From Pseudomonadota bacterium (GTDB taxonomy: Bacteria; Myxococcota_A; UBA9042; GCA-2863065): a DNA stretch of 64,000 nt. The notes under the pieces were generated by a model. It saw nothing but the letters and a program-made list of their open reading frames with translations. It had not been told where the DNA came from and did not search any database. This document shows positions 14,001 to 64,000 of the stretch, one piece after another. The position numbers were made by a program, and so were the translations under genes. The DNA is taken from NCBI GenBank assembly GCA_005776725.1, contig SXOO01000062.1, forward strand, positions 358-64,357. Direction: 5' to 3'. Each line of letters begins with the position of its first letter. Within the stretch, counting starts at the first letter, position 1.

Positions 14001-16421
14001 TGCCGCATCGGCCAGCGGGCCGTCCACGACCGAGACACACTCGAGCTGCACCTCCAGTCGCAGCTGTGCATCGGTCTCTCGGCCGGCCTGCTCGTCGAGG
14101 AACGCCACGTAGCCCCGGTAGTCGCCTTGGGCCGCGTAAAATGCCTTGAGCTCTTCCCACGCCTTCTCGGCCACCAGGATCCGCTGCAGGCCGATCCGGG
14201 CCGGCGCGTGCCCCGGGACCGCTTCGAGCACCTCGCGCCACGCATCCTTGGCCTCGGCGCCGCGCTGGAGACGCTCCCAGAGCACCTCGGCCTGCTTCTC
14301 GAGGAGCTCAGCGCGACGCCGCTTGGTCTTGGAGTGTTCGAGTCGCGTGCCGAGGTGGGCGCACAGCTTCTCCCAGTAGCCCTCTGACTCGAACAGCGTG
14401 AGCAGGGCCTGCGCCGCGCGCTCGTTCTTCGGGTTGAGCTCGAGGAGCGCCTCCCAGTGCCGGATGGCCTCGTCGTTCCAGTGCAGCTTGTCCGTGGCCA
14501 GGGCGGCCAACTCGGCCAGGATCGGCTCGCGACGCGCCGGCTCGGTGAGGCCGAGCTCGGACGTGTAGGCGGCGTAGAGGCGCTCGAGGTTGTGCTTGGC
14601 CTTGTAGATGTCTCGGAGCTTCTGCACCACCTCGAGGTTCTGCGGGTCGATCTCGAGGATCCGCTCGAGGAAGGGCACCGCCTGGCTGTCGGAGCTCATC
14701 TTCGACAGATAGAGGTTGGCGACCTGGTGGAAGAGGTCGAGGAGCGTGTCCTCGTCGGTGGTGGCGGCGATCTTCTTCTGGAGGACCTGGACCAGCTCGG
14801 ACCAGCGGGCCGCGTCCTCGTACCGCTGGGCCAGAGTGTCGAGCGCCTTGGTGTTGGTGGGGGAGAGCTGGACGATGCGTCCGTAGGTCTGGACGACCAG
14901 CTCGTCCACCGGGAGCTTCTGAGGATCCTGATAGATATCGATGATCTGGAAGAGGTACTGGACCTTTTGCTCGGTCTCCTCGACCCCGTCGCCGAGGCGC
15001 CGGATCTGTCCGTTCAGGATCTCGACGAGCGCGTGCCACTTGCCCATCGCCCGGTAGAGCTCGGTGAGGCGTGCGGTGGCCACCTCGTTCGTGGCGTCCT
15101 CGGTGAGGACCCGCTTGAAAGCCTCCACGGCCATGTCGGGGCTCTCGAGGTGCGACTCGGCGAGGCGCGCCATCTCCAGTGCCACGGCCACCCGGTCCTC
15201 GCGGGGCACGATCGCCAGCTTCTGCGCGAGCACGGCGTGGAGTCGGCGGAAGTCGGCCTTCTCGGCGAAGTAGGCCTCGAAGAAGCCGATCGCCGTCATG
15301 TCGCGCGGGTCGGTGGCGCGCACGCGTCGGAACAGCTTCTCGGCCTCGTCGAGGTCGCCAGCGAGGCGCCAGGTGATCTCGCCCTCGCGGATGAGCCATC
15401 GCTTCTCGTCGTTGCGGCTCTTGGTGGACCGCCGCGCCGCCTGCAACAGCGCGCGAGCCCCCGCGGTGTCGCCGGCCGCGCTCATGGACCCCTCGAGCGC
15501 GTCGATCGCTTCGGGATCCGCTGGATCGGCCACGAGCGCCTCGCGCAGAAGCTCTGCTGCGAAGGCCTCCTCAGTGTGAATCAGCGCCAGCCCGCAGAGG
15601 CGGGCCGCAGCCACACGGGAGCTCCGCGCTGCCGCGAGGTGGGACTGCGCCACTGCGCGGTCTGGCGCCACCTGCAGAAGCTCCGCCGCGAGCTCCGGCG
15701 CCCCCGGATCTTCGTGGAATGCCTCGCGAAGGTGCGCGACGTCTTGGCTCTCGCCATAGAGCGCGAGGAGCGCCCGGGCGCGCTCGGCCCCGGGGGTGGC
15801 CGCGTCGGCCGCCGCGCGGAGGTCCATCGCCGAGAGCTCGGCTTGACGCTCGAGCTCTGTGACCGCGTCGAGGCCCGCCCGCACCACCGGATCCTCGCTG
15901 CCCGCCGCCAGCGCGCGCTCGAACGCGGCCCGCGCCTTCGCAGGCTCGTTGGCCTGGAGCGCCAGGGCGCCCCGGCGACCCTCGAGGGCAGCGCGACGCT
16001 CGGGCGACGCCGCCAGCGGCGCTGCCAGTTCGAGGTACCCGCGCTCTCGGGCCGCGTCCGGCTCGGCGCGCTCGGCCAACGCGGAGAGCGTGTCATCCGA
16101 GGGGCACGCCCGGAAGGCCTCGGCCAGCACCCTCGCTGCCTCTTCCGCGTCGCCCACGTGGAACAGGAGGCGGGCGCGACGCTCGAGCAGGCTCCCCCGC
16201 ACGGCGTCCGCCGCGAGGCGCTCCAGCACGGAGTCGAGCACGGAGAGCAGCCGAGCCCGAACGCTCTGCACCTCGTCGTGATCGAACACCGCCTCAGGAA
16301 CGCTCGCGGCCTGCTCGAGCAGCTGGTGGAGCGCCGAGGGTTCCGGCAGCCCGGCCTCGACGGCCGACTCCAGGAGTTCGAGCGGTTCCAACGTGGAGGA
16401 GCGAGCGGTGGATGCGGTCAT
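5001..16421 (-). CDS. Giant tetratricopeptide (TPR) repeat protein, 3806 aa
   Basis: A single uninterrupted 11.4-kb ORF. The sequence is almost entirely helical-repeat units with a recurring pattern such as ...A..AYERVL.LDP.D.EAL.ALE.LY...ERW.DL..LL.RR... (ERWDDLVALLRRRL, QDWESLLAVYRRKADL, ARWSELVQVLQKKI, GKWHALVEILNGQI and others). All listed plus-strand ORFs inside it are R/G/P-rich antisense shadows. Confidence 0.85.
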   Translation of the reverse strand: MTASTARSSTLEPLELLESAVEAGLPEPSALHQLLEQAASVPEAVFDHDEVQSVRARLLSVLDSVLERLAADAVRGSLLERRARLLFHVGDAEEAARVLAEAFRACPSDDTLSALAERAEPDAARERGYLELAAPLAASPERRAALEGRRGALALQANEPAKARAAFERALAAGSEDPVVRAGLDAVTELERQAELSAMDLRAAADAATPGAERARALLALYGESQDVAHLREAFHEDPGAPELAAELLQVAPDRAVAQSHLAAARSSRVAAARLCGLALIHTEEAFAAELLREALVADPADPEAIDALEGSMSAAGDTAGARALLQAARRSTKSRNDEKRWLIREGEITWRLAGDLDEAEKLFRRVRATDPRDMTAIGFFEAYFAEKADFRRLHAVLAQKLAIVPREDRVAVALEMARLAESHLESPDMAVEAFKRVLTEDATNEVATARLTELYRAMGKWHALVEILNGQIRRLGDGVEETEQKVQYLFQIIDIYQDPQKLPVDELVVQTYGRIVQLSPTNTKALDTLAQRYEDAARWSELVQVLQKKIAATTDEDTLLDLFHQVANLYLSKMSSDSQAVPFLERILEIDPQNLEVVQKLRDIYKAKHNLERLYAAYTSELGLTEPARREPILAELAALATDKLHWNDEAIRHWEALLELNPKNERAAQALLTLFESEGYWEKLCAHLGTRLEHSKTKRRRAELLEKQAEVLWERLQRGAEAKDAWREVLEAVPGHAPARIGLQRILVAEKAWEELKAFYAAQGDYRGYVAFLDEQAGRETDAQLRLEVQLECVSVVDGPLADAAGATERLSRLFVLYPARLDIATRLAERSEAAGEVDRLLPVLRRVADLAGATEEAESALMRGARALGARRREDEAFKWARQAAEVELDRSAARIGIGPLTSGLERWAEACDDFETLAAWYGEVEGRVGAGSGTAASGARIELLRRSAEIWLHRLRRPRDAARALEAILDLDENAVATIGELEELTYSEQDWPAYERVLRRRIDVLETEGDVDRLRLALIRLGRLHEEILEQPELAAEAYQRILARIPGDDEAVDGLQRVYEAESRWADLVGLVDAERALTGDRAKRAALDARAARILADRSGDLDAALDRLERSLSDHPDNDAAVLQLWELFEADRAREGVTSLIEPVLRRQGDAARLALVLNDRLGREADVGTLESLHDELAGLAVDPAVAFMHRLQQVALSPGEPKPRAQLEALAGQLGRWAEVAALYSAVLGLDDGPSGRDRLAAVDRVARLDDDAGAEAVLTRRLAELTEAQLGDLERATHCYERVLALDPEDLETLGALERLHAQRQDWESLLAVYRRKADLVWEVEDKRAVYTATANLLEDELERAEDAIEVYQSLLLLDERDAEAMDRLEGLFQRFERWDDLVALLRRRLPTSDDRVSVYVRIGRVLADYLGQNELAVDAWIAAIGDERGAAAQAAAEALDRLVAVEEQPELARRVADVLQPWYRAAGDWRGEVRMLTVRADLADSDRDRAGYFRQAGDRFEHQGGDWVGAFESYADALRHYPDEREAESGLQRAANALGRHADLADVLAEVSPYATSNASVRQLLMLADVARRELRDSDRALDALERVLLVEPDHVGALEQLDALYADTGRLRDRVAIVERRAERADGEVSRRRLLLLAGQLYEELGDGGPAADAYERVVRSGDPVTEEAVSEALDRLIGVYETEATYEPLVKALARKADVLGVRGVDAVERVAVLFRAAEVSEVELGDEAGATLFYERVRLSVPEEPTAFQNLRRLYGILERWDDLEALLLDARTRAEEDRTATITDYMLAQLYENQLARPSDALDRYEAILSRDPSFAAARRALEAALDSIESGPRAAELLDRAYVGAGDVLGQVKILELRLARWPDDDAVGGRLRLARLLEEGLGDPGRAFAVLGEAAGIEWRATGTLRTELVRLAGLTGAFDDLEILDREALARARGDEARLKILLEMGRVAREDRNDLDVAEGILRETLSSFPDHRETLEAMRSLYEATGRTREVIDTLRHEVERTAAASDRIALLYRIATLLFEREHDAAGAADTYEEILRNDPAEARAYRALESLRFADNDFPAVAALLRREIAVTRDAEHRLGLRQRLAVLCREQLGDPEQAFAATVALLGEAPTDPVGRSVLEQLSAEDPTDEVVFERLGKLYRDARDFETLIGLHRQRVEAMPGELLKGLDAIRTLQLTELQDRAAAYETEKAMLRKAPTEPRRWEQAEDSAGRLGLLVDLIGVYGQIVKDDPSNVDLALRAARLAEERLKRPSDAVVFYESVSAFDESHDGAAQALRRLYEQLERWRELADLEERLAVRASGRERERAWLAVAALRERLDDAEGAARALESLVTVEPGHRQALARLEALARQRGVSEDVESVLHRLLAVSHDDEAREVRYRLALLRLEGGDPAGALDFLREVLAGLTTGHSLRGKAIASTEEVLKEDHAPALRGLAADLLERAYAGDSKVSWHRWEAVYLAQLGVCEDHEHRMLLQQELGQLYEERAGEPQRALTAFAAAYALEPGNTAIEQTLEGVAGRHGLEAALYGVYSEHVESMPSEARVRVLARLAALAEGALSDADAAARWREQRLELVPGDVSALAALEQHYQSRGDHAAVLRVLTARLDVAETEADRIALLHRLGDLSASLNDVAAAERRWTEIRELAPGDRRALDRLEASTRARGAHSELAAVLRQKIDLAQEDDEDRLDWLTDLARLQERELGQLEDAARTYEESLVFSPQNILALTSLERLYPQISDHRGHLRILEAKRGQFADPRAKAEADLQIARLLIDELDEPDRALDLLRLILGQFPTHEGAVGVLESLLEDPRVALMASFALEPVYLTAERWKPLERAMELQLEIRARDGMDGAERIELLRRLAEIRNNELDDPDGALRALGEAFALDPSDEALRENLEEVAGGAGRWTVLVDSVRDALGAVSSPELAMALHAWIARLSEAHLDDPSGAIDAWRAVLAYDELEPTALSELGRLLEATGRFEERVDVLRREIAIAPHSESRHLRRRLAEITDTEVQNPEAAFQLYVELVAEDAEDEECVMALDLLGQAHDWLRDSAARMLLPHYRSKGQWNDVVRWLLAGVDDAPDRVERLEAAAAVAEQHLGDADAAWGYLKLAVLAAPERIELLQRLTAISGLSEGTISRAEELLALTVQAAGKATALETRRELLLRAAQLAGSTLGKRDVAERCYREVLVVDSENTEALQALLALYAAEDRPADLVGVAEALFALVVDREERLELARTMARAGGRVGDADRVEDGWRRVLELDDGDEEALQALEAHYRAAESYTALAEILERRARRVEDPDVLARLKVELGRIRGELLADPDGAIEAYEEAIEADGWCEPALLALELLYTEHAMPEDLARILGTRLQALNGAARIPVLARLATIAEEDLGDLELAVSRFEEMLVLDAGEVGALDALIRVSEAQGRFDRLALLLEQRAAVSRDVAHRIGLLVRAAQLWENPLSDLARSREVAESAHALDPNNRVTLGLLAQLFERTGELDKAIEAYEGLVRRSDDPEERIATQLTLGRLHLFGKDNTTKALAIYKDILGARPDHAEATARLKEVLYRRESWEALVPVLEREVQRASDARAQADAIFELATVLSDRVKDLDAAWRWLRRGVEVKRDHPGLVAAMIDQLERRGDTAELLPLLSWHVSYLEAKRRFQELAPQALRLARLHEARRDADKAYSAYQVASTADSRNVVVQLGLGRTAFETGRLDKALQTLQALLLVQHELEDSAARLELFVLLAKVCVEAGDKAKAKRHVARLLQLDPAHAEGLALQKKLG

Positions 16422-19257: not shown

Positions 19258-22200
19258 ATGCTGCTGCGCGTGAAGCGCGTCATCGTGGCCCTATTCGTCT
19301 TCGGCTGCAGCGAGTTCCGAGACCGCGTCCCGTCCGATACGGGCGAGACCGGTACCGACTCCGCCGACATCAAGAACCCCTGCGCCGGCGTCGACTGCGA
19401 CGACGGCGACCCGTGCACCTCCGATCGGTGCGTCGCGGCTACCGGCGAATGTGAGCACCCGCCCGTCCCGGACGGCGCTTCCTGCGACGATGGCGCGTTC
19501 TGCACCGCCAACGACTCCTGCTCGGCCGGGGTCTGCGGAGGCACTGCCACGAGCTGTCCCACCGACGGGACCCCGTGCACCACCGGCGTGTGCGACGAGG
19601 ACGGAAACACCTGCAAGGTCGTGCCGCTGGCCGACGCAGCCCCCTGCGACGACGGCGACACCTGCACAACGGGGGAGACGTGCGCCGCGGGCGCATGCGG
19701 CGGGGGGAGCCCGGTCGCCTGCGAGGGTGCCATCGGGACGTGCACTCCGTCGGTCTGCGTGAGTGGACAGGGCTGCGTCGCCACGCCCGCGCCCGACTCC
19801 ACGAGCTGCGACGACGGAGACGCGTGCACCGAGGGTGACGTGTGCACCGGCGGGACCTGTACCGGGGTGCCCAAGGACTGCTCGGGCCTCGACGAGAAAT
19901 GCAGGATCGCCGTGTGCTTCGAAGGGCAATGCTCGCTAACCAACGCCCCGGCCGGCCCCTGCGACGATGGAGATGCCTGCACGGTGGGCGACGCTTGCGC
20001 GGCGGGCGCCTGCCAGGGGGCGCCTTTGGACTGTTCGCTGGTGGACGGGCCCTGCGCCGTCGGCTTCTGCGATCCCGGGGGCGCTGGCTGCATCCAGAAC
20101 CCGGTGAACGAGGCTCAGCCGTGCGAGGACGGCGATCTCTGCAGCATCACGTCGGCGTGCGTCTCCGGGTTCTGCGCACTGGTCACCGCGGTCGACTGCT
20201 CTTCTCTGGATGGCCCTTGCGCCATCGGCGCGTGCGTCGTGGCCACGGGCGAGTGCACCACGAAGCCGGTGCTCGACGGCGTCGCCTGCTCCGACGGCGA
20301 CGCGTGCACGCTCGGCGATCAGTGCCTCTCCGGTCTGTGCCTCGGAGACGCCAAGGACTGCGGGAAGTCGGTGATCGCCTGCTGGTCGGTCACCTGCGAC
20401 CCCACCGACGGAAAGTGCAACACGGGCCCAGACGCGCTCCTCGACGGGACGCCCTGTGCCGACGACCTCTTCTGCACCGTCGACGGCGCGTGCGCGGCCG
20501 GCACGTGCGCGAGCGCGCCGCGTGACTGCTCCGGCGCCGCCGGCACATGCCAGGTCGCCGTTTGCGACGAGGGCAACGACGCCTGCGCCCCGGTGCCCGC
20601 CGACGATGGCTCGCCGTGTTCGGATGGGCAGGGCTGCACCACCAGCGACGTCTGCGTCGCGGGCTCTTGCGTCGGACTCGGCACGCTCAGTTGCTCGCAG
20701 CTGGACGGCCCCTGCCACATCGGCGAGTGCAGCGAGGCGGTCGGTGGGTGTACGGCCACGCCGCGCCCCGAGAACGCGGATTGCTCGGACGGGTCCACCT
20801 GCACCACCGGAGATGCCTGCAAGAACGGTGAGTGTATCGGCGGCGCGGTCGACTGCTCCCACCTCACGAGCGGCTGCGCCGTCGGCGTCTGCACCCAAGA
20901 CGCGGGCTGTGTCGCAAACCCGGTGCCGGACGGCGCGTCGTGCTCGGATGGCGTCGAGTGCACTCAAGGCGACGACTGCATCGCCGGCGCGTGTACGCCC
21001 GGCGTCCCCGTCGGGTGCCCGTGCCCGAATCCCGGTCGCGCGATCGAGCTCACGGACGGCTGCGTCACTACGGCCGGCGGTCCACTGCTCGACTCCCAGA
21101 GAGGCTTCACCGTGGCCTTCTGGATGCGGACCACCACGGTCGCCTCGGCCCGTCTGCTCGACCAGCGGGTCAGCGCGTCCGCCGGAGACTCCGACTGGTC
21201 GATCACCTACGAGGCGCCCGGCGGGGTCGGGCAGCTGCGATTCCAGTACGGCAACACTGTGGGAGCCGACAGCCAGCTGGGCATGAGCGGCGTCGCCCTG
21301 AACGACGGGCTCTGGCACTACGTGGCGCTGGTGCGGGACGGCGACGACCTCCGCTGGTGGGTAGACGGGATCGGGCAGCCGGTGGCGACCGCCACGAACC
21401 TCCTGGCACTCACCAACCCTGCGCCGCTTGCGATCGGCTGTGGGCGCTTCGGCGGGGAGCTGTTCAACGGCGCCATCGACGAGGTGGCGATCTGGAACTA
21501 CCCTCGGTATCGCACCTCGCACGCGCCGCCGGACCGCCACCCGGTCACGGCCGGCCTCGTCTCCCTCTTCCGCTTCGACGAGTCGCCTCCCGCGCCGGCG
21601 GACGCCATTACGGGCCTCGCGGCCAACCTCTCTGGCGGCGCCGCCAGCACGGAGTCCGTCTCACCTTCGATGTTCGGCTGTTGCGGCAACGGCTTCGTCG
21701 AGACCGGAGAGGCGTGCGAGCCCGGCTCGAACCCGGGGTGCAGCGGCGCCTGCGAGCTGCCCGCGATCCCGGCGCAGTCAGCCGACTTCGACGGCTCGGG
21801 CTGCATCGTCGTGGACTCCCAGACCCTCATCCCGAGCGTCTCCCTGCTCACCGTGGAGTTCTGGGTGCAGACGACGCAGAAGCCCGCGATTCTCCTCGCC
21901 AAGACCTCCAGCGACGGCAACTCAGGGTGGCGCATCGAGCTCGACGACGCCGGTAAGCCCGTGTTCCGCGGCTTTGACATCAACGGGGGACCCGTGGTCC
22001 ACCTCGGGTCCGCCACGGTCTCGAACGGCCTCTGGCACCACGTCGCGCTCATGAACTTCGCCGGGAACAAGCTCCGCTGGTTCGTCGACGGCGTCGCGGC
22101 GCCCACCAGCACGCTCGACAAGCTGGTCCCGCTCGGCAACACGCACCCGACGCGCCTCGGCTGCGGGCCCACGGGCGCCACGCTACTCGGCCGGCTCGAC

Positions 22201-22395
22201 GGGGTGCACGTGAGCCGGGCGCTGCGGTACTCCACCAACTTCACGCCCTCGAAGTCGCCCGCTCCGGACGCCAACACCGACCTCTTGTTCACCTTCGACC
22301 TCCCGGCGGTGAACGGCACTGTGGTGGACCTCTCGCCCGGTCTGCACGACGGGGCGGGCAACAGCGGGGTCACGATCTTGCCGGTCGCGCCGTGA
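19258..22395 (+). CDS. Cys-rich-repeat lipoprotein with two LamG/concanavalin-like (Laminin_G_3-type) domains, 1045 aa
   Basis: Lipobox ALFVFGC. Roughly 550 aa of reiterated C-D-D-G-[DN]-x-C-T-x-x-D-x-C modules. These are followed by GFTVAFWMRTT...LWHYVALVRDGDDLRWWVDG...FNGAIDEVAIWNY (LamG-like), a CCGNGFVETGEACE myxococcal-type Cys-rich repeat, and a second LamG-like domain (LTVEFWVQTT...LWHHVALMNFAGNKLRWFVDG). Starts 21 bp after the Omp85 stop. Confidence 0.8.
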   Translation: MLLRVKRVIVALFVFGCSEFRDRVPSDTGETGTDSADIKNPCAGVDCDDGDPCTSDRCVAATGECEHPPVPDGASCDDGAFCTANDSCSAGVCGGTATSCPTDGTPCTTGVCDEDGNTCKVVPLADAAPCDDGDTCTTGETCAAGACGGGSPVACEGAIGTCTPSVCVSGQGCVATPAPDSTSCDDGDACTEGDVCTGGTCTGVPKDCSGLDEKCRIAVCFEGQCSLTNAPAGPCDDGDACTVGDACAAGACQGAPLDCSLVDGPCAVGFCDPGGAGCIQNPVNEAQPCEDGDLCSITSACVSGFCALVTAVDCSSLDGPCAIGACVVATGECTTKPVLDGVACSDGDACTLGDQCLSGLCLGDAKDCGKSVIACWSVTCDPTDGKCNTGPDALLDGTPCADDLFCTVDGACAAGTCASAPRDCSGAAGTCQVAVCDEGNDACAPVPADDGSPCSDGQGCTTSDVCVAGSCVGLGTLSCSQLDGPCHIGECSEAVGGCTATPRPENADCSDGSTCTTGDACKNGECIGGAVDCSHLTSGCAVGVCTQDAGCVANPVPDGASCSDGVECTQGDDCIAGACTPGVPVGCPCPNPGRAIELTDGCVTTAGGPLLDSQRGFTVAFWMRTTTVASARLLDQRVSASAGDSDWSITYEAPGGVGQLRFQYGNTVGADSQLGMSGVALNDGLWHYVALVRDGDDLRWWVDGIGQPVATATNLLALTNPAPLAIGCGRFGGELFNGAIDEVAIWNYPRYRTSHAPPDRHPVTAGLVSLFRFDESPPAPADAITGLAANLSGGAASTESVSPSMFGCCGNGFVETGEACEPGSNPGCSGACELPAIPAQSADFDGSGCIVVDSQTLIPSVSLLTVEFWVQTTQKPAILLAKTSSDGNSGWRIELDDAGKPVFRGFDINGGPVVHLGSATVSNGLWHHVALMNFAGNKLRWFVDGVAAPTSTLDKLVPLGNTHPTRLGCGPTGATLLGRLDGVHVSRALRYSTNFTPSKSPAPDANTDLLFTFDLPAVNGTVVDLSPGLHDGAGNSGVTILPVAP

Positions 22396-27421: not shown

Positions 27422-30418
27422 ATGAAAAGACCTCTCCTCTGGGCGGCTGTGCTCCTCTTCGCGTGTGAGTCCGGAGACACCGGCGGCGGCGCTTCGCTGA
27501 ATGCCGGCGACGCTCGTGCGAACGGCAAGACGGACACGCCGTCTGCGGGCGACGACAGCGGTACGCCGGGCTCCGGCAGCGACGGCAGCGACGGCAGCGA
27601 CGGCAGCGACGGCACCCCGAACCCCTGCGCCGAGGACCAGTGTCACATCGACGACGCCTGCTGGGACGCAGGCGACGCGCCCGAGGGCGACCCGTGCCGC
27701 GTCTGCGAGCCCGAGCGCGACGTCTTCACGTGGAGCGACACAGACTCCGCTTGTGATGACGGCGACGCGTGCACCCTGGGCGACGGCTGCACCCTCGGCG
27801 CCTGTATCGGCGCGCCCAAGGTCTGCGTCGACGGCGATCCGTGCACCAACAGCCAGTGCGAGAACGGCGAGTGCGTGCACCCAGGGCGGGCCGGCCCCTG
27901 TGACGACGGCGACGCGTGCACGATCAACGACCGCTGCATGAGCGCGAAGTGCTCCGGCGGGCTCCCGAAGTGCGACGACGGCAACAGCTGCACCACCGAC
28001 GCCTGCGCAGACGGCGCCTGCGATCACACGGTGCTCAACAGCGCCCCATGCGACGACGGCAACCCGTGCACCGAGTCCACCACCTGCGTGGCAGGAGCGT
28101 GCGTCGGCGGCACGCCGGCGCCCTGCGACGACGGCGATCTCTGCACGGCGGACGCCTGCGTGCTGACGGGACCGCTCGGCGCCGGTGGCTGCGTGCACAC
28201 CTCCGTCGCGGCGTACTGCGAAGACTCGAACCCCTGCACCGACGAGGCCTGTGACGCCGCCAAGGGCTGCGTCTACCCGTTCAACTCCATCCCGTGCAAC
28301 GACGACGACGAGTGCACGCTCGCTGACAAGTGCACCACTGGCGCGTGCCGCGGCGAAGACGTCCTCCTCTCCGACAACAACCCGTGCACCAACGACTACT
28401 GCGACCCCGTCGACGGCGTCTACCACACGAACAACCAGTTCCCGTGCGAGGACGGCGACGCGTGCACGGTGGGCGACCTGTGCGACGCCGGGCAGTGTAC
28501 GCCGGGGACGGGCGAGCTCCCTTGCGACGACGGCGAGCCTTGCACAGACGACGCGTGCGAAAAGACGGCGGGTTGCTTCACCACACCGAACACCGCCACC
28601 TGCGACGATGGGTCGGTCTGCACCGAGGACGACGTCTGCGCCAACGGTGAGTGCGACGGCCACGCGATCACGTGCGACGACAGCAACGCCTGCACCACCG
28701 ACAGCTGCGACAAGGTGGAGGGATGCCGCTTCACGCTGATCGTCTCGAACGCCTGCCGCCCCGACATCACGATCACGTACCCGCCCCGCGGCGCGACCAT
28801 CCAGGGGTCTTCGAAGTCAATCACCGTGACGGGAATTGTCACGAGCGGCGCCGCCCCGATGGACACCTTCACGATCAACGGGGCGCCGGTGACGCTGGCC
28901 CCCGACGGGAGCTTCGCGCACCCCGTGGCCACCGAGGTGGGGGGCAACACGCTGGTGATCGACGCCGTGGACGAGCTGGGGGCGGTGCGCCACCGGGTCC
29001 AGGCGTTCCATTGGTCAAGCGTCTATGCGCTGCCCGACAACCTCGAGCAGAAGACGGGCATGGCGGAGCAGGGCCTGGCGATCTGGCTGTCTGGCTCCGC
29101 GCTCGACAAGCTAACCCAGGTGTTCCAGAGCATCGTGGCCGGCCTCACGATCGGGGACTCCATCCAGAACCCGGTGCTTCAGCAGGCGGGCTACAAGATC
29201 CACGTGAACAACCTCACCCATGGCACACCGCAGGTGGCCATGAAGCCCGTGAACGGAGGCATCGAGCTCACCGTCACCGTGAAGAACATCAAGGCCGACA
29301 TCAACGCCGACGGTCAGAGCTTCCTCACCCCTGACTTCGACGGGACCATGACGGTGGCCACGCTCACTGCGACCGCCCAGGTGCAGCTGTCGGTGGACCC
29401 GAGCACGCACACTCTGGTGGCCACGGTCGGCACCGTGAACGTGGCGATGAGCAACCCTTCGATCTCGATCAGCGGCATCATCGGCCTGCTCATCTCCCCG
29501 CTCATCAACCTGCTCGTGCCGATCTTCAAGGGAGACATCGAGAGCACCTTCAGCAGCACGCTCAAGGACGTCATCGGGCCGCTCGTGGCAGACGCGCTGA
29601 ACGGCCTCGCGCTCTCGTTCGACTTCGACCTGCCCTCCTTCGACCCAACGGCCGACCCGGTGGCCGTCCAGGTGGTCACCGACTTCCAGGCGGTCGACTT
29701 CACGCCCGCCGGCGGCGCCCTGATCCTGCGCGGTGGCGCCTACACGAGCCCGGTGGTCACTCCCTACACGAACCTCGGGTCGGTCATTCGAGGCAACTGC
29801 GGCGCACCGGGCTTCAAGCTCACGCCGCCGAAGGCCGCGCCTCTGGAGCTGCTCCTCTCGGACGACCTCATCAACGAGATCCTGTACTCCGCATGGCGGG
29901 GCGGCTTCCTGGAGTTCGATGTGCCGCCGGAGCTGCTCGCCGGCGTCGACGTCTCCCAATTCGGGATCGGCAAGCTCGACGTCAGCGTCTCGGCGATGTT
30001 GGCGCCGGTGGTCAGCGACTGCGCCACGGGGACCTCGACCGTCCACATCGGCGACCTCAAGATCAACGCCGCGCTCGACCTCTTCGGGCAGCAGATGGAC
30101 GTGGTGATGCACGTCAGCCTCACCACGGAGATCGTGTTCTCGGCGGCCGATGGCGAGCTGTCGTTCGGCCTGGCCGCGATCGAGTCGATCGACAGCGACA
30201 TCGCCGTGCTCCAGGAGCACCTCGTGGCGTCGGAGGGCGCCGTGGCCGATCTCGTGAACCAGAACCTGATCCCCGCGCTCATCGGGGGACTCGGCGGCGG
30301 CGCCCTCGGCTCGTTCCCGCTCCCCGAGCTGGACGTGAGCGGCGTCAAGATCGCCATCGAACCTACGTCCGTGAGCCGCGGCCCGGGCCAGACCGTCGTC
30401 TCGGGGAACCTCAAGTGA
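27422..30418 (+). CDS. Cys-rich-repeat lipoprotein with Ig-like domain and C-terminal BPI/LBP-like (TULIP) two-barrel region, 998 aa
   Basis: Lipobox VLLFAC, then a D/G/S linker and ~370 aa of CDDG[DN]xCTxDxC modules. Ig-like segment: [23 protein letters not shown]...[14 protein letters not shown]...[14 protein letters not shown]. The last ~470 aa align by eye to both halves of BPI. N half: [14 protein letters not shown].., [79 protein letters not shown]. C half: [27 protein letters not shown].., ..[22 protein letters not shown]. Confidence 0.75.
   Translation: [998 protein letters not shown]
27575..27610 (+). repeat. In-frame 9-bp microsatellite (GGCAGCGAC) x4 encoding (GSD)n linker
   Basis: Four perfect tandem copies read directly from the sequence, inside the post-lipobox linker of the 27422 gene. 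Confidence 0.9.
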
Positions 30419-32394
30419 AGCGAATCGCCCTCGCCCTCATCACGCTCCTCGGCTGCCACGACCATGGCGACAACGGGAAGCACCTCCCGGTACCAGCCGT
30501 CGCGGCCGATGGCGCAGACGGTGCCGAGAGCGCAGACGGTGCCGACGGTGCCGACAGTGCCAACGGTGCCGACAGCGCGGACGGCACCGAGGGTGCAGAC
30601 AACACCGATGCCAGAGACGGCGGCGCGAGCTGCACGGCCGACGCCGACTGCGACGACGGCCTCGCTTGCACTACCGACGCCTGCGAGGACAGCGCCTGCA
30701 AGCACTCCGTGGCGGCGGACGCGTGCCTCGTGTCCGCGACGTGCCTTGCTGCCGGCGAGCCTGGGCCCGAGCCCTGCCTCGTCTGCGACCCGGCCCAGTC
30801 GCAGAGCTCCCTGACGCCCGCGGCCGGCCCCTGCGACGACGGCGAACCGTGCACCGAGGCCGACAGCTGCTCAGAGGGTGCGTGTGTCGGCGGGCCTGAG
30901 CCCGAGTGCGACGACGGGCTCCCCTGCACCACTGACGCGTGCGCGCTCGAGGTGGGCTGCGTCCACGTTTCGAACGACGAGCCGTGCGACGACGGCGACG
31001 CCTGCACGGAGGGCGACACCTGCCTCCTGGGCCTCTGCGTAGCCGGGGCCACCCAGCAATGCGACGACGAGAACCCCTGCTCGGCCGACTCCTGCGCCGA
31101 GGGCGCCTGCGTCAACGACGTGACCGCGTTCGAGGGCCAGCCCTGCGACGACGGGGACGCGTGCGTCGGCGGGACGGCGTGCTCCGGCGGCGCCTGCGGT
31201 GGAGGCTTGGCGCTGGCCTGCGACGACGGCAACGCCTGCACGATCGACTACTGCGACACGCTCGCCGGGTGCGGGTCGCTCCCCACCGAGTCCCCATGCT
31301 GCACCGGCGTCGTCAGCGTCTGCGACGACGGCGACCCCTGCACCGCCGATGTCTGCGACCCGGTCACGACTGACTGCACCAATCAGCCCATGCTGGCGGG
31401 CACCTCCTGTGACGATGGAGAGCCGTGCACCTCCGGCGACGTCTGCGACACCGATGGCGTCTGCGACGGCGCCGTCACGGCGTGCGACGACGGGAACGTG
31501 TGCACCTCCGACGTGTGCCTCCTGGGCGAGGGCTGCAAGGGCTTCCCCGTGGAGGGCGCGTGCGACGATGGGCTCGAGTGCAGCACCGGCGACACCTGCG
31601 TACTGGGGTTGTGCAAAGCCGACACCACCGCTTGCGGCTGCGTGGCGCCCCACGGCGTCGATGCGGCGAAGGTGGCGTCGCTGCAGATCTCGACCACCTC
31701 CGAGACGGGCGCAGCCCTTGACCTCGACGGCGACCCGACGACCTGTGCGCCCTCCGGCAGCTGCTCGGGAGGGGTCCACAACAGCTTCAGCGTGCTGGCC
31801 GGCCTCGCGAACACGGCCCTCGCCGACTCAATCGCCGGTGGAAGCATCGTGCTCCTGGTCACCGCGCCGGCCGCCGCCTCTGGCGCCTTCGACCTCGTGC
31901 TCTACCAGGGCGAGCTCGACCCGGCCAACGCCGCGTGCGATCTCAACGCCGCCACCTGCGACTACCTCATCGACGCGGCCAGCTTCGATGACGCGTGCAA
32001 GGCGCGCTTCGTGCTCCCCGCCACGCTCTCCGGCACCAAGCTCTCGGCCGGCTCGGTCGACAGCCAGATCCCGTTCTCCATCCCCATCCAAGGGATCACG
32101 CTCGAGGTGGTGGTCTACGCCGCGCGCCTCGAGGGAGAGGTCACGCTGGACGGTGGGAACATCACGGCCTTCACCGGGGTTCTTGGCGGCGCGATCAGCC
32201 AGAGCGCTTTGTTCACCGCGATCGACAACCTCCCGGCGGAGGGGCTCCCCGTTCCGAAGGACCTCATCAAGACGATCCTGCAGACGTCGCTCGAGTACGA
32301 CATCGACACCGACGGCGACGACAAGGGCGATGCGGCCAGCATCGGCCTCACGCTCTCGGGAATCGACGCGGCGCTCACCGGCGTCGCCCCCTAG
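30415..32394 (+). CDS. Cys-rich-repeat lipoprotein with unknown C-terminal domain, 659 aa
   Basis: The in-frame GTG at 30415 overlaps the upstream stop (GTGA at 30415..30418). [14 protein letters not shown] is a lipobox. Next come an A/D/G-rich linker from imperfect 9-bp repeats, ~330 aa of CDDG-type modules, and a ~250-aa Cys-poor C-terminal domain (no family recognised). The track ORF 29893..32394 N-terminal extension overlaps the upstream gene out of frame. Confidence 0.8.
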   Translation: [659 protein letters not shown]

Positions 32395-56834: not shown

Positions 56835-57251
56835 CTACGCGCCCGCAGTCATGAAGCCGGTCGCGCGGGCGGCAGTAGCCAACTGGGCATCGTGGGTCGC
56901 AAGAACCGGCGCCTCGAGGCGCCCCTCGCGCCAGAGGGTGGCCGTAGCGAGGTGGATGGCGTCGAGCGTGCCCAGCGGTGTTGGGAACGGGTCCGCGGCC
57001 CGACGAAGCACGGCGGGGGACACGTCAACCCGATCCATGCGCTCCAGCAGCCGCAGCACCAGCCCGCGGCGGTCCGCCAGCTCCTCCGCGTCGAGAAGCC
57101 CGAGACGCAGACGCCGGTCCAGCGTACGGAGGCACTCGACCTCCGTGAGCGCGCTCGTGACCGCCTTCTGAATTGACGCCCACTCCGGCAGACGGTCGGC
57201 TTGGGACAGCGCCACCCGAAGGAGGACAGAGGAATCGACGTACGCGATCAA
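56835..57251 (-). CDS. vapC: PIN-domain ribonuclease toxin (VapC-like)
   Basis: 138 aa. MIAYVDSSVLL carries the first acidic residue, followed by TSALTEVEC, TLDAIHLATA and LATHDAQL, in the arrangement typical of PIN domains. The TTG start overlaps the antitoxin stop (TTGA at 57248..57251). Confidence 0.8.
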   Translation of the reverse strand: MIAYVDSSVLLRVALSQADRLPEWASIQKAVTSALTEVECLRTLDRRLRLGLLDAEELADRRGLVLRLLERMDRVDVSPAVLRRAADPFPTPLGTLDAIHLATATLWREGRLEAPVLATHDAQLATAARATGFMTAGA

Positions 57252-57508
57252 AACCGGTCGCTGCGCTCGTCGCGGAGCTGTTCGAGGACGTCGACGGACG
57301 ATCGGCTGGGCCCGAGAAGTGCAACCTCGTGAAGCGCCCCCTTCGCCGGACGGATGACGAGCTCGAGCCCGACGGCCCCTACCGGAACAATGCGCGCGAT
57401 AGGCTCTCGGCGGTCGAGTACGACGATCGTCTCCCCGCGCCGAACGGCCTGGAGATGCTCGCTGAGGTGGGCTTTTAGATCGGCAGTGCCTACGGAGGTC
57501 ATGACCAT
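57248..57508 (-). CDS. Phd/YefM-type antitoxin
   Basis: 86 aa. VGTADLKAHLSEHLQAVRRGETIVVLDRREPIARIVP matches the prevent-host-death/YefM N-terminal fold pattern. It lies directly upstream of, and coupled to, the PIN gene. Confidence 0.75.
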   Translation of the reverse strand: MVMTSVGTADLKAHLSEHLQAVRRGETIVVLDRREPIARIVPVGAVGLELVIRPAKGALHEVALLGPSRSSVDVLEQLRDERSDRF

Positions 57509-57641: not shown

Positions 57642-59378
57642 ATGCGCCTTTTCGGGCCCCGCGCGGCTCGCCCAGCCCGCCTCGCGCTCCTCGTCGTCGC
57701 AGGGGCCTTGTGGACCGCCGCCTGCGGTGACGCGGCCAGCGACCCCGCGGCCCAGCCGGTCGACGCCGCCGTAGCTGACGGGGCCGACTCAGCGGGCGGC
57801 GGCACGCCCGCCGACGCGACGACGGGGCCTGGCCGAGCCGACGCGAGCACCCACAACGACGCCCTCAGCGGGGTCGACACTCTCGCCGCACCCGATGACA
57901 GCGGCGGCGTTGCCGACTCGGGACCCGACCTCGACACCTCGAACGCCAACGAGGACGCGCCCTCGCCACCCGACGCCTCCACCGAGCCCCCGCCCGACGC
58001 CCCGGAGGTGAGCGACGCGCCCTCCCCGCCCGACGCCTCCACGGAGCCCCAGCCGGACGCCGTCGCGTGCCCGGCGTCCTGCGACGACGCGCTCGACTGC
58101 ACGGTGGACAGCTGCGACGCGAACACGGGGACGTGCGTCCACGACTCCGCGGCGTGCCCCAAGGACCCCCTCGCGGTCTTCGGCAGCCGCTACTGGACCG
58201 TATACCGCCCGCACTTCCTCTCGGACTTCTACGAGGCGGGGCGCGTGACTGATCGCGTGACTGCCGGCGTACGCATGTTCGGCGACACGAACATCTTCAT
58301 GGGTTACGCGCTCTCCACCTTCGTCTACGAGTACCGCGCCGCGCACCTCCCCGAGTCGCTCGCCCTGGTGCACGAGATCCTCGACGCCTACGCCGCCCTC
58401 GACGCGCTCCCCGCCAACGCGACCTTCGGCTACCTCATCGACGACCCGCTGGACGGGTACGTCTACCGGAGCGACCGCGGCCCCGACTACGAGACCAACA
58501 ACTGCCTGTTGCTGAGCGGGTTCTGCCTACCGCAGCTGGCCACGCGCAACAACGAGCCCTCCGGCGACCAGCTCCTGGGCACGCTCCGAGCGCTGAAGGA
58601 CGTGGTGGACTTCCCTGGGCCGCTGGTCCACGGCGGCGTCGACCTGAAGAGCCTGGCACGCGCCCACGCGCACCGGATCGGCGTCTACCTGCGCGAGAGC
58701 GCGTTCGTCATGCATAACCGCTTCGGCCAGCCGGTGAAGCGCGGCGAGGACCAGCGGTGGGCCTCATGGGCGTTCCAGCGCGGCGTGGCGGCGGTAACGG
58801 GCAACCCCAAGAGCGACTACGAGGCGACATGGTCACTGGGGATCCTCCCGGTGGCGCCCGCGCAGCAGCGGGCGATCAGCCACCTGTTCATCCGGGGGGC
58901 CGTGACGTTCACTGCGTCGTGCGTAGCCGGCGCCCAGATCGACGTGGGCCCGCTGCTCGGTATCCCGTTCACGCTCGACCTCGAGTGCAACGAGTTCAAC
59001 ATCGGCCTCGGCGGCGACTCGGCAGTGATCAGCCTCTCGCCCGACCCGGCCAGCGAGGACTGGTTCTCCAAGGTAGTGCAGCGCGCCGACCTGGTGGCGG
59101 AGGGCAGCGCGCTCTACGCCCTCTACGCCCGGCTGCACTTCAACGACGACGCGCCGGAGCTGCTGGACACCGCGGCGCGCTTCCTCGCGGCCCCTTCCAC
59201 GCCACCCACGGGCACGAACCTCGACCCCAACGGCTGGTGCGTTTCGTGGCGGTGGGCTCACGACTACGACAACCCCAACCGCTGCATCGAGGAGCCCCAC
59301 CTCGGCGAGGTCTACAGCGGACTCGACTACATGCTGCCCCGGGCCTTTGCGTCTGCTTTCGGCATCCTCCCGGAGTAG
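57642..59378 (+). CDS. Lipoprotein with acidic/Pro-rich repeat linker, one Cys-rich module and ~400-aa domain of unknown function
   Basis: Lipobox ALWTAAC. The linker contains a duplicated DAPSPPDASTEP.PDA unit. One module reads CPASCDDALDCTVDSCDANTGTCVHDSAAC. I recognise no family for the remainder. Confidence 0.7.
   Translation: MRLFGPRAARPARLALLVVAGALWTAACGDAASDPAAQPVDAAVADGADSAGGGTPADATTGPGRADASTHNDALSGVDTLAAPDDSGGVADSGPDLDTSNANEDAPSPPDASTEPPPDAPEVSDAPSPPDASTEPQPDAVACPASCDDALDCTVDSCDANTGTCVHDSAACPKDPLAVFGSRYWTVYRPHFLSDFYEAGRVTDRVTAGVRMFGDTNIFMGYALSTFVYEYRAAHLPESLALVHEILDAYAALDALPANATFGYLIDDPLDGYVYRSDRGPDYETNNCLLLSGFCLPQLATRNNEPSGDQLLGTLRALKDVVDFPGPLVHGGVDLKSLARAHAHRIGVYLRESAFVMHNRFGQPVKRGEDQRWASWAFQRGVAAVTGNPKSDYEATWSLGILPVAPAQQRAISHLFIRGAVTFTASCVAGAQIDVGPLLGIPFTLDLECNEFNIGLGGDSAVISLSPDPASEDWFSKVVQRADLVAEGSALYALYARLHFNDDAPELLDTAARFLAAPSTPPTGTNLDPNGWCVSWRWAHDYDNPNRCIEEPHLGEVYSGLDYMLPRAFASAFGILPE
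57954..58061 (+). repeat. 60-bp tandem duplication (about 1.8 copies) inside the lipoprotein linker
   Basis: gacgcgccctcgccacccgacgcctccaccgagccc... repeats at 58014 as gacgcgccctccccgcccgacgcctccacggagccc..., read directly from the sequence. Confidence 0.8.
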
Positions 59379-59401: not shown

Positions 59402-61009
59402 TCAGAGCCCCAGGGCTGCCTTGATCGCCGGCTCAACCTCGGAGGCCTGACTCGCGTAGCGCTTCAGGTAGGTGATCTTGCCGCCCGCCTTGAGCACCAC
59501 GTTCTGCTCGTTCGCACCCGCGAAGGCGAAGTGGGCCTTGAGGGCCTGCGTGGGATCGTAGAGCACGGGGATCGTGAGGTTGTACTTGGTGCGGATCTGC
59601 TTGCAGAGGGTTGAGGTGGCAGGCCCGCCCGAGCCCTCTTCGATCACGAGGATCGAGGTGAGACCAGCGGCTGCGTAGAGGTCCTGACGTTGTTGGATCA
59701 CCGAACCGGCGACCTGCTTGCAGCCACTTCACCAGTCCGCATATCCGAACAGGTACGCCGCTTTGGACGCGCAGAGGTCGTGAAGGCTCACCGAGTTGCC
59801 ATCGCAATCTTTCAGTGTGAGGTCAGCGACCGTCGCGCCTACCGTGGTCCCGTAAGGACCTACTGGCGGGCAGGTCACTGCGGTGCTGCAGACACCCGCG
59901 GAGCAGGCCTGGCCGGCGCCGCAGGTACCGCAGGTGCCGCCGCAGCCATCGTCGCCGCACACCGCATCCCCGCACGACGGATCGCACTTGCAGGCCCCCC
60001 CTTCGCACGAGAAGCCCGCCGAACACGCGCCGCAGGTGCCGCCGCAGCCGTCGTCGCCGCAGGACTTCCCGTCGCACGCGGTGATGCACTCGCAGGTCCC
60101 GGCTTCGCATGAGAAGCCCGCCGAGCAAGCGCCGCAGGTGCCGCCGCAGCCGTCGTCGCCGCAGGACTTCCCGTCGCACGAGGCCACGCACTCGCAGGCT
60201 CCCGCGTCGCACGAGAAACCCGCCGAACACGTGCCGCATACGCCACCGCAGCCGTCGTCCCCGCAGGACTTCCCTTCGCATGACGGGACACACTGGCAGG
60301 CCCCGCCGACGCAGGCCTCCCCCTCGCCGCACCCCCCGCAGCTCCCCCCGCAGCCGTCGGCGCCACAGGGCTTGGCCACGCAGGACGCGGTGCACGACGC
60401 CACGCACTGCCCGCTGGCGCAGAACTGCGACGCGTCGCACTCGCCACAAGAGCTGCCGCAGCCACCGTCACCGCACACCTTGTCACCGCACTGGGCGGTG
60501 CAGACACACTCCCCGCTCTCGCAGGTGCTCGGGCTCGCGCAGGAGCCGCAGGTGCCACCACAGCCGTCGTCACCGCAGTCGACGCCCCCGCAGCTGGGCA
60601 CGCAGAGGCACTGCCCGCCGGCACAAGCGGTGCCAGCGGAGCACGTCCCGCAGGAGCCGCCGCAGCCATCATCGCCACAAGCGCTGCCGGCGCAGGAAGG
60701 CACGCAGCTCGGCACGTCCGGTGCCCCGCCCGTGTCTGCCGGGCCGATGTCTGCCGGGCCGGTGTCTGTTGGGCCGGTGTCTGCCGGGGCTCGGTCAACC
60801 ACGTCGTCCTCAGGGAGCGGCGCCGCCACGTCCTCGACGGGAGACTCTGCAGCGTCGTTGGCGACACCCCCGGAGTCTTCGTCGGAGAGCACAGCGTCCG
60901 CGGCGCCCGCCACGTCCGGTGGGTCTGAGGTCGCGTCGGGCGCGGCCTCGGTCCCGCCAGACTGCGCGGTGCAGCCCAGAGCAAGGAGAATGAGGAGGAG
61001 TCGTTGCAT
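59402..61009 (-). CDS. Cys-rich-module lipoprotein with C-terminal TlpA/thioredoxin-like domain; in-frame TGA at 59729..59731 at the first Cys position of WCxxC (candidate selenocysteine, otherwise a pseudogene)
   Basis: Track ORFs 59729..61009 and 59402..59701 are in the same frame, separated only by one TGA. Read-through gives ...SVSLHDLCASKAAYLFGYADW-[TGA]-SGCKQVAGSVIQQRQDLYAAAGLTSILVIEEG...IPVLYDP...NVVLKAGGKITY..., a continuous TlpA/ResA-like thioredoxin fold with the TGA exactly where WC(x)xC has its first Cys. Lipobox LLALGC at the N-terminus. Confidence 0.55.
59696..59714 (-). promoter_or_regulatory. SECIS-like stem-loop downstream of the in-frame UGA
   Basis: mRNA sequence: UGA AGUGGCUGCAAGCA GGUCGCCG-GUU-CGGUGAUC. 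The stem pairs G18-C36, G19-U35, U20-A34, C21-G33, G22-U32, C23-G31, C24-G30 and G25-C29 (numbered from the U of UGA). The apical GGUUC/GUU loop contains G-U. The stem begins 14 nt after the UGA, comparable to the position of bacterial SECIS elements. Confidence 0.45.
59880..60710 (-). repeat. Eight tandem ~34-codon Cys-rich modules (C-x-x-x-C-G-D-D-G-C-G-G-x-C-G-x-C-x-x-G-x-x-C-x-x-G-x-C-x-C)
   Basis: Read from the translation: PSCAGSACGDDGCGGSCGTCSAGTACAGGQCLCV and seven further copies. The central three (..SCEGKSCGDDGCGGVCGTCSAGFSCDAGACECV / ASCDGKSCGDDGCGGTCGACSAGFSCEAGTCECI / TACDGKSCGDDGCGGTCGACSAGFSCEGGACKCD) are also near-identical at the DNA level, with a ~102-nt period around 59990..60300. 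Coordinates of the array are approximate. Confidence 0.8.
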
Positions 61010-63502: not shown

Positions 63503-64000
63503 CTACTCCATGAGCTTGCCGGCGTGTCGCACATCCGTACCACGAACGAGGAATATCACCTCCTCGGCGAGGTTGGTTGCGTGGTCGCCAATCCGCTCCA
63601 GCACCTTGCACACGGACTGCAGGTGGATCCCCTCCTCAATAGCGGTGGGGTCGGCGGTCATGGCCGCCAGGATCGCCTCGAAGAGGTCGTGGTAGCCGTC
63701 GTCGACATGGTCGTCGCTGGCGATCACGGCCTCTGCCCGATCCACGTCGTGGGCGACGAAGGCGTCGATCGCGCTGCGCACCATGGCCTGGACGGCGTCG
63801 GCGAGGCGCTCGATCCCCGAGGTGGGCACGACGAGGCGCCGTCCCGCGAGGTCCACTGCGCGCTCGCATAGGTTGACCGCCAGATCGCCGATGCGCTCGA
63901 GGTCGGTGACCATCTTGAGCGCGAGCGTGACGAACCGAAGATCGGACGCAAGCGGGTGCCGCTTGGCGAGGATCAGGAGGCATAGCTCGTCGATCTCGCG
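63503..64000 (-). CDS. phoU: Phosphate signalling complex protein PhoU (5' end beyond the right window edge)
   Basis: The track shows 63503..63913, but the frame stays open to the window end. My translation of the last bases gives REIDELCLLILAKRHPLASDLRFVTLALKMVTDLERIGD..., and the second repeat reads ...HLQSVCKVLERIGDHATNLAEEVIFLV. Both PhoU repeat signatures (D/ERIGD) are present. Confidence 0.85.
   Translation of the reverse strand, partial: REIDELCLLILAKRHPLASDLRFVTLALKMVTDLERIGDLAVNLCERAVDLAGRRLVVPTSGIERLADAVQAMVRSAIDAFVAHDVDRAEAVIASDDHVDDGYHDLFEAILAAMTADPTAIEEGIHLQSVCKVLERIGDHATNLAEEVIFLVRGTDVRHAGKLME

Follow-up and report, generated by a model that had tools for sequence, protein, structure and literature searches.

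An in-frame UGA at the catalytic cysteine position of a lipid-anchored redoxin gene of a Myxococcota-like bacterium is probably decoded as selenocysteine

In the 64,000-nucleotide stretch of DNA analysed in this study (contig SXOO01000062.1 of assembly GCA_005776725.1, positions 358 to 64,357; hereafter the window), a single minus-strand reading frame runs from 61009 to 59402 and is interrupted only once, by a TGA triplet at 59731..59729. The locus therefore raises the question of whether this triplet terminates a gene or is decoded, as selenocysteine (Sec), within one. The frame begins with an ATG at 61009..61007, continues for 426 sense codons up to the TGA and for a further 108 sense codons beyond it, and ends with a second TGA (59404..59402). 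Direct reading of the DNA confirmed the original prediction that two listed open reading frames (ORFs; 59729..61009 and 59402..59701) are the halves of one frame, split by a single TGA. The codons around the internal stop are GCG GAC TGG TGA AGT GGC TGC AAG (A D W, stop, S G C K), and the translation past it has Y A D W before the stop and S G C K Q V A G S V I Q Q behind it. TGA is also the usual stop codon of this genome, which means that any read-through must be local and site-specific.

The triplet lies inside a domain with a thioredoxin fold. Domain searches were performed with the last 160 residues of the product, in which Cys was substituted for the internal stop, and the Pfam families Redoxin (PF08534; E=1.9e-11, 44.4 bits against a cut-off of 26.6, profile positions 2-139 of 148) and AhpC-TSA (PF00578; E=2.8e-11, 43.8 bits against a cut-off of 26) were both matched across the TGA. 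The match begins at residue 390, in the N-terminal redoxin part (59732..59854, minus strand, up to Trp426), which carries the conserved motifs CPPxGPxG..DCDG..HDLC..W. The C-terminal redoxin part (59405..59728, minus strand), which would be translated only if the UGA is recoded, is an open frame of 108 codons that takes the Pfam match to profile position 139, shows 53-66% identity to homologues and retains the invariant PVLYDPT and KRYASQ motifs. In a sequence search of the PDB, the best matches were the thioredoxin-family entries 2yp6/4hqz (E about 3e-5), whose WCGPCK aligns with W-[U]-S-G-C-K; the stop thus coincides with the N-terminal Cys of the CxxC motif, the attacking one. Its predicted location at the first Cys of WCxxC is borne out by this alignment and by the Cys homologues, which read WC(P/G)xC. 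The UGA presumably read as Sec (U427, 59729..59731) is the first position of U-S-G-C, and the resolving Cys430 of this UxxC motif is encoded by TGC at 59720..59722, in a column that is invariant across all homologues. The domain had also been called TlpA/ResA-like. Read-through does give a complete Redoxin/AhpC-TSA domain, but the likeness to ResA holds at the superfamily level only, the NCBIfam ResA model (NF002854) scoring 21.5 bits against a cut-off of 170.

In relatives of the gene, the column in question is occupied by either Cys or TGA. The first protein search returned three matches (proteins and loci are referred to here by P and L numbers, respectively). P0001 is a Cys form (65% identity, YADWCPICKE), whose locus, L002, also encodes CGDDGCGG modules like those described below; P0002 is a post-TGA fragment (99% identical); and P0003 is a fragment of about 100 residues (53% identical). 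In the DNA of the last (L001), F A G W is followed by TGA and then by S G C K N V A G Q V M, which shows that the TGA is conserved in a divergent homologue. Scanning one genome per species, where one of the patterns contained WC and was thus limited to Cys forms, yielded six loci. Two of them, the paralogues L005 (W-U-GGC) and L009 (W-U-PTC), carry TGA and come from one Myxococcales metagenome-assembled genome (MAG), CAZJHX01; the other four encode WCPPC lipoproteins and belong to a Sandaracinaceae MAG and to other MAGs labelled Deltaproteobacteria, proteobacterium or 'bacterium'. The complete architecture of the window's gene (lipobox, PD linker, Cys-rich modules and redoxin domain) is repeated in L005. 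Metagenomes were scanned with a DNA pattern that ends at the second Cys (DC[DE]G, 15 nucleotides, H[DE]LC, 36 nucleotides, TGG TGA, 6 nucleotides, TGY), and 24 further loci were recovered, in which the post-TGA codons encode the rest of the domain, including a (V/L)LYDP motif that is absent from the search pattern. The TGA forms comprise L001, L005, L009 and the 24 metagenomic loci; besides the window, 25 distinct, very divergent loci share the triplet at this column, so that there are 26 distinct Sec-form sequences with the window included. In every complete locus (uncut by contig ends) conservation continues past the TGA, and the frame remains open for 103-179 homologous codons.

A HMMER search with the Cys form P0001 against 1.84 billion cluster representatives gave 323 relatives at E<=1e-3, mostly WCxxC lipoproteins of full length. 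Of the top 150 representatives, however, about 18 are pieces of about 100 residues that start just past the U column (among them P0002, P0003, P0005, P0006, P0063, P0073-P0080, P0087, P0104 and P0105), and some of these are identical to the post-TGA parts of Sec loci (P0079 to that of L014, P0104 to that of L029). These short representatives are mis-called halves of Sec forms, which indicates a systematic mis-annotation in public gene calls. The closest relatives of the window's gene are Cys forms, namely P0001/L002 (65%), with WCPIC, and P0004 (56%), with WCPNC. A rough neighbour-joining tree also placed a Cys form as its nearest neighbour, with the Sec forms distributed in at least five clusters among Cys forms. 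An AlphaFold model of the Cys homologue P0001, built from an alignment of four rows, had a pLDDT (predicted local distance difference test score) of 43.

The population from which the window derives is represented by four assemblies (the window, L038, L003 and L004), and in all of them the TGA is followed by an intact downstream frame. L038 (ENA ERZ27257034 k141_1571788, 262 kb) is about 99% identical to the window, and its gene has been called as two genes, of 460 and 99 amino acids. It differs in the number of Cys-rich modules, of which the window has eight and L038 nine (11517..12899); the difference consists of one extra 102-nucleotide unit and two nearby residue changes.

A hairpin of the type that serves as a bacterial selenocysteine insertion sequence (SECIS) follows the UGA. 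It occupies 59696..59714 (minus strand), with the 5' arm at 59714..59707, an apical GUU at 59706..59704 and the 3' arm at 59703..59696; its stem of 8 bp includes two G-U pairs, and 14 nucleotides separate it from the UGA. The hairpin was located exactly where it had been predicted, with the G/U-containing apical loop. Its conserved core is a helix of 6 bp (59713..59708 paired with 59702..59697) closed by the loop GGUUC. We aligned the 54 nucleotides around the TGA of the 26 distinct Sec-form sequences, which required no gaps, and RNAalifold predicted a 6-bp helix (columns 25-30 with 36-41) with a 5-nucleotide loop. In the 8-pair version 81% of the cells are standard pairs, as against 69% in column shuffles (none of 500 reached the observed value), seven of the eight pairs have changed on both sides, and the covariation score is 0.49, as against 0.26 in the shuffles (0/500). 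Sliding the 3' arm by 1-3 nucleotides reduces pairing to 27-52%. The compensatory changes include pair 29-37 (C-G in 18 sequences, U-A in seven) and pair 27-39 (C-G in 22, G-C in three). The loop consensus is R-G-U-Y-N (G26 U27), with the G present in at least 90% of sequences, and all six core pairs are formed in 20 of the 26; in L015 the hairpin is shifted by one nucleotide. The peptides encoded at the hairpin vary (VAGSV, FIGQM, FVSLM, FAGRA and HAGSA), and the fixed register of the hairpin in spite of these different peptides indicates that the constraint acts on the RNA.

The hairpin is kept wherever the TGA is kept, and it is absent from all five Cys forms for which DNA was available. 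The latter form only one to four of the six core pairs, with core energies of -2.6 to +8.0 kcal/mol, whereas the energies lie between -3.3 and -9.2 kcal/mol in 25 of the 26 Sec forms. The hairpin of the window, GUCGCCGGUUCGGUGAU, is identical to that of L005 and differs from that of L018 only at the first base (AUCGCC...). The presence of this clade-typical structure in the window argues that its lineage was ancestrally a Sec lineage, and not a recent TGC-to-TGA mutant. A different palindrome, GAGCUCGCGAGCUC, was noticed in L002 (1262..1275), starting 13 nucleotides past the TGC of this closest Cys form; it is off the SECIS register, has no GU loop, and may or may not be a remnant.

The position of the UGA at the catalytic Cys column, the pairing of Sec with Cys forms among relatives, the conservation downstream and the covarying hairpin, which is tied to the UGA state, all support the prediction of a selenoprotein. 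We consider it highly probable (about 0.85) that 59402..61009 (minus strand) is one gene of 535 residues plus the terminal TGA, and that its product is an exported, lipid-anchored thiol-disulfide oxidoreductase with Sec, decoded from UGA, as the attacking residue of the active site. By analogy with the SelA/SelB/SelC/SelD pathway, the hairpin would act as a bacterial SECIS that binds SelB.GTP.Sec-tRNA(Sec), and Sec would be delivered at UGA codon 427. Recoding would produce the full-length lipoprotein with a U-S-G-C selenenylsulfide/selenol-thiol redox centre, while a lack of selenium or of recoding would end translation at residue 426 and leave a Cys-rich stalk that has no working catalytic domain. 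Export and lipidation at Cys13 would place the redoxin head outside the cytoplasm, where it may function as a reductase or isomerase of protein disulfides in the manner of the TlpA/ResA/CcmG/Etrx redoxins; such an extracytoplasmic role is inferred from family membership and from the lipobox.

Several observations weigh against this reading. No tRNA-Sec, selA, selB or selD was found in the window, in the 8.5 kb past its right end or in the flanks of the related loci: ARAGORN detected no tRNA-Sec in the window and 25 loci, tblastn with the SelA, SelB and SelD proteins of E. coli MG1655 gave no match in the window or in any of the loci, and Pfam searches of about 28 ORFs of the window revealed neither sel genes nor ccdA/dsbD. 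Since the window covers 64 kb of a genome that must measure several Mb, the absence of these genes from it says little either way. The use of Sec has been documented in a myxobacterium, Anaeromyxobacter (PMC1794560). The window contains no other candidate selenoprotein gene; a scan for in-frame TGAs flanked on either side by coding signal gave none in a UxxC/CxxU context, and most of its hits were antisense-frame artefacts. As a single sequence, the 81-nucleotide segment 59660..59740 folds no better than shuffles (z=-1.05). In this window (71% G+C), hairpins of the same class (at least 7 bp, a loop of 3-5 nucleotides with GU, start 12-18 nucleotides downstream) follow 0.6-0.7% of all positions, and TGA triplets likewise. 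The hairpin of one sequence is therefore weak evidence, and its weight comes from the comparative data. No Rfam family was matched, either by the whole window at gathering thresholds or by 59500..59900 at E<=10 (where only noise, mir-1193 and KCNQ1OT1, appeared), and no general bacterial SECIS family was among the matches.

The comparison with the SECIS of E. coli fdhF is also mixed. Both elements lie in the coding region directly past the UGA and have a short, G+C-rich upper helix with a small loop bearing a G-U on its 5' side (GGUC in fdhF; GGUUC, GGUCA or AGUUC here). To the disadvantage of our reading, however, the GU is located at +26/+27 from the U of the UGA, 3 nucleotides further than in fdhF (+23/+24), and the hairpin has no bulged U, unlike fdhF, nor did RNAalifold detect a conserved lower helix. 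The sole base difference between the window and L003/L004 over 1.2-1.3 kb is an A-to-T change at 59422, by which AAG becomes TAG; in these two near-identical contigs (L003 633..635, L004 639..641) the protein would end six residues early, which may reflect a tolerated short truncation of the C-terminus or a relaxed constraint.

The early TAG, the Cys state of the two closest relatives and the lack of visible Sec machinery would all fit a nonsense pseudogene, in which a Cys-type redoxin gene was recently inactivated by a change of TGC to TGA and the frame beyond the stop has had no time to decay. This is, however, very unlikely: 25 other, very divergent loci have TGA in this column and an intact frame beyond it, and the triplet is present in four assemblies of the population. 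The 108 post-TGA codons have the appearance of translated sequence, their G+C content at third positions being 0.84, like that of neighbouring genes, and all family-invariant residues have been kept. Moreover, the Cys forms lack the hairpin, and one that had just mutated from TGC to TGA would lack it too, yet the window carries the full clade-typical structure. The site might instead be a genuine SECIS-dependent one that yields no Sec in this organism, being either a fossil left after loss of the Sec pathway or a UGA at which a SelB-dependent tRNA that accepts Cys inserts this amino acid. Such recoding from Sec to Cys has been reported in some bacteria, no Sec machinery was seen in the sequences searched here, and switches from Sec to Cys have been frequent in the family, as the scattering of Sec forms in the tree indicates. 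We nevertheless judge this possibility to be unlikely: the preservation of TGA and hairpin in four assemblies and across the clade implies current selection for decoding, recoding tRNAs of this kind are rare, and nothing at this locus points to one.

The split made by gene callers would be taken at face value if the locus contained two separate genes, one for a Cys-rich lipoprotein of 426 amino acids and one for an independent 99-amino-acid protein starting at GTG 59701, and the ~100-amino-acid fragments among the family representatives are of exactly this kind. Such an arrangement is extremely improbable, because neither half forms a complete fold and the Pfam domain spans the junction, every locus is split exactly at the catalytic Cys column, the next start codon downstream lies at different positions in different loci (with none nearby in some), and the nine codons in between are conserved and carry the second Cys. 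A one-base sequencing or assembly error might be suspected from the metagenomic source and from the different copy numbers of the repeat array in different assemblies, but its probability is negligible: the identical TGA occurs in four independent assemblies as well as in 25 divergent loci, and its presence in replicate assemblies excludes such an error. Reading the UGA as Sec within a single gene is thus the explanation that we favour.

The predicted selenoprotein is composed, in this order, of a lipoprotein signal peptide, an acidic linker, eight Cys-rich modules of disulfide type and the C-terminal redoxin domain. The signal peptide MQRLLLILLALG and the following C13 (60971..61009, minus strand; Cys13 at 60971..60973) were read from the sequence by inspection, and follow the pattern M-Q-R-(L/I/A)8-L-G-C13 of a lipobox with its invariant Cys. 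Translation and tandem repeat analysis (TRF) define a low-complexity acidic linker rich in Pro and Ala (60710..60970, minus strand), which contains a 15-nucleotide tandem repeat of the PADTG type (60728..60788); homologues have PD-, GE- or ND-rich linkers at that place. The modules (59855..60709, minus strand) follow the pattern C-x-C-x3-C-x4-CGDDGCGG-x-CG-x-C-x6-C-x4-C. A regular-expression count of CGxxGCG[GS] gave eight, with a period of 34 residues (102 nucleotides), which TRF also reported (59928..60304), and the array holds 65 Cys in 285 residues. It most likely forms a rigid, disulfide-bonded spacer. The fusion of a lipobox and eight CGDDGCGG modules to the redoxin domain thus stands as predicted. 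The description of this architecture as unusual needs qualification: it is real, but recurs in the clade, where nine other Sec loci have 2-10 modules and several Cys forms have one each, and is not peculiar to the window. Lipobox-type N-termini are also present in 13 other Sec loci and in Cys forms. The module itself has no match in Pfam, NCBIfam, the PDB (by sequence) or the literature. The Sec genes of L011, L013, L017, L019, L027 and L034 were seen to have an additional Cys-rich C-terminal tail of about 65 residues (..GECS..C..C..C..GDDSTCP.GE.C..) past the redoxin domain.

Selenoproteins with a related catalytic domain have been catalogued before. The Global Ocean Sampling (GOS) study lists 225 sequences of 'Prx-like 1' (pfam00578, UxxC) and 68 of 'Prx-like 3' (pfam08534, UxxC), and fusions of the latter to extra Cys-containing domains were already noted there (PMC2398784, Table 2 for the definitions); a 'Prx-like protein' is known from Sargasso Sea data (PMC1088965), and a 2026 review includes 'Redoxin family protein PF08534 UxxC' and 'Prx-like thiol:disulfide oxidoreductase' in its table (PMC13188914). 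The window's gene has both defining features of the published UxxC Prx-like/Redoxin selenoproteins, a pfam00578/pfam08534 domain above the cut-off and U-S-G-C with Sec in first position. It also resembles these proteins of marine metagenomes and Deltaproteobacteria in that Cys homologues far outnumber Sec forms and a SECIS hairpin with a G in its small apical loop lies directly downstream. Judged by domain and motif, it is a member of this already catalogued class. What sets it apart is its own subfamily signature (CPPxGPxG, DCDG, H[DE]LC, W-U-x-x-C and PVLYDP), the lipobox and the CGDDGCGG modules, of which members of the window's clade have 2-10. This signature and the lipobox-plus-stalk architecture may be undescribed; a motif search restricted to the GOS supplement found one read with a similar context (..LYDFC..AADWUGAC..) and none with DCDGN.

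Sec in ResA-like domains is likewise already recognised, as shown by the curated NCBIfam family NF041054 ('ResA-like WAxxUGC motif-containing protein'); the window's gene has a different motif and, with 14.7 bits against a cut-off of 300, does not belong to it. The lipoprotein or membrane anchor and the catalytic domain predicted to lie outside the cytoplasm are shared with ResA/TlpA/CcmG and with the Streptococcus pneumoniae proteins 2yp6/4hqz/4hqs, which we take to be Etrx1/Etrx2. In contrast to these redoxins, the window's protein would have Sec in place of Cys, four extra conserved Cys (C5, C27, C38 and C94 of the 160-residue domain) and a long Cys-rich stalk. A structural parallel may be drawn with TraA, a myxobacterial surface receptor in which tandem Cys-rich repeats lie between the anchor and the functional head (PMC6626042). 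Both would be surface proteins of Myxococcota, but they have no sequence match in Pfam or NCBIfam terms, and the likeness is inferred.

Reading the UGA as Sec repairs gene models that are currently split into a 'Cys-rich protein' of 426 or 460 residues and an orphan of about 100; such post-UGA fragments account for about one in eight of the top family cluster representatives. A lipid-anchored, extracytoplasmic selenoprotein subfamily would be added to Myxococcota-like bacteria, and the family would offer a natural series of repeated Sec/Cys switches, in which the SECIS comes and goes with the codon. The finding alters neither what is known of how Sec is decoded nor the kinds of proteins that use it, and in these respects is neither surprising nor mechanistically new.

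The gene neighbourhoods give some indication of function. Pfam searches of the neighbours of the window's gene revealed no ccdA/dsbD, no cytochrome-maturation genes and no substrate genes, and no neighbour is conserved across the family. The L009-type Sec subfamily, on the other hand, adjoins multihaem cytochrome c genes (L009 3317..5740, minus strand; L015 1057..2463, plus strand; also L019 and L027) with Pfam MtrC/MtrF domains II/IV and Cytochrome_C7, which suggests a cytochrome-maturation-type, ResA/CcmG-like role for this branch. Three loci of the window's clade (L014, L026 and L028) adjoin genes for large Cys-rich Dicty_CTDC proteins. A speculative and rather doubtful extension of our reading is that lipobox, CGDDGCGG stalk and Sec-redoxin together define a selenoenzyme of the cell surface that is distinct from those described so far and that serves Myxococcota-like bacteria in folding or repairing their very large secretome of Cys-rich-repeat proteins. 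If this were true, a Sec-powered disulfide reductase or isomerase would be held off the membrane by a rigid, disulfide-knotted stalk, and its reach would be tuned by the number of modules (2-10 in the clade, eight or nine within one population).

Other features of the window and its surroundings were also recorded. Three large proteins with Dicty_CTDC Cys-rich repeats are encoded on the plus strand at 19258..22395, 27422..30418 and 29893..32394, together with Laminin_G, Glucodextranase_B and LBP/BPI/CETP-like domains; since the second and third of these ORFs share about 500 nucleotides, at least one of their boundaries must be wrong. The convergent neighbour of the selenoprotein gene (57642..59378, plus strand), which ends 24 nucleotides from its stop, encodes 578 residues with no Pfam match, comprising an N-terminal low-complexity region and a short Cys-rich motif, and is not conserved beside homologues. 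A PhdYeFM/PIN toxin-antitoxin pair is called about 2 kb from the selenoprotein gene in the related contig L038 (about 56835..57508 of the window, minus strand). A giant protein of 3806 residues, consisting mostly of TPR (tetratricopeptide) repeats, is encoded at 5001..16421 (minus strand); within its ORF, ARAGORN reported an 87-nucleotide tRNA-Arg(TCG) (12211..12297, minus strand), which is probably a false positive and would otherwise be something odd. Just past window position 64000, the L038 contig (1..9023) carries a suf operon for Fe-S cluster assembly, pst phosphate transporter genes and phoU.

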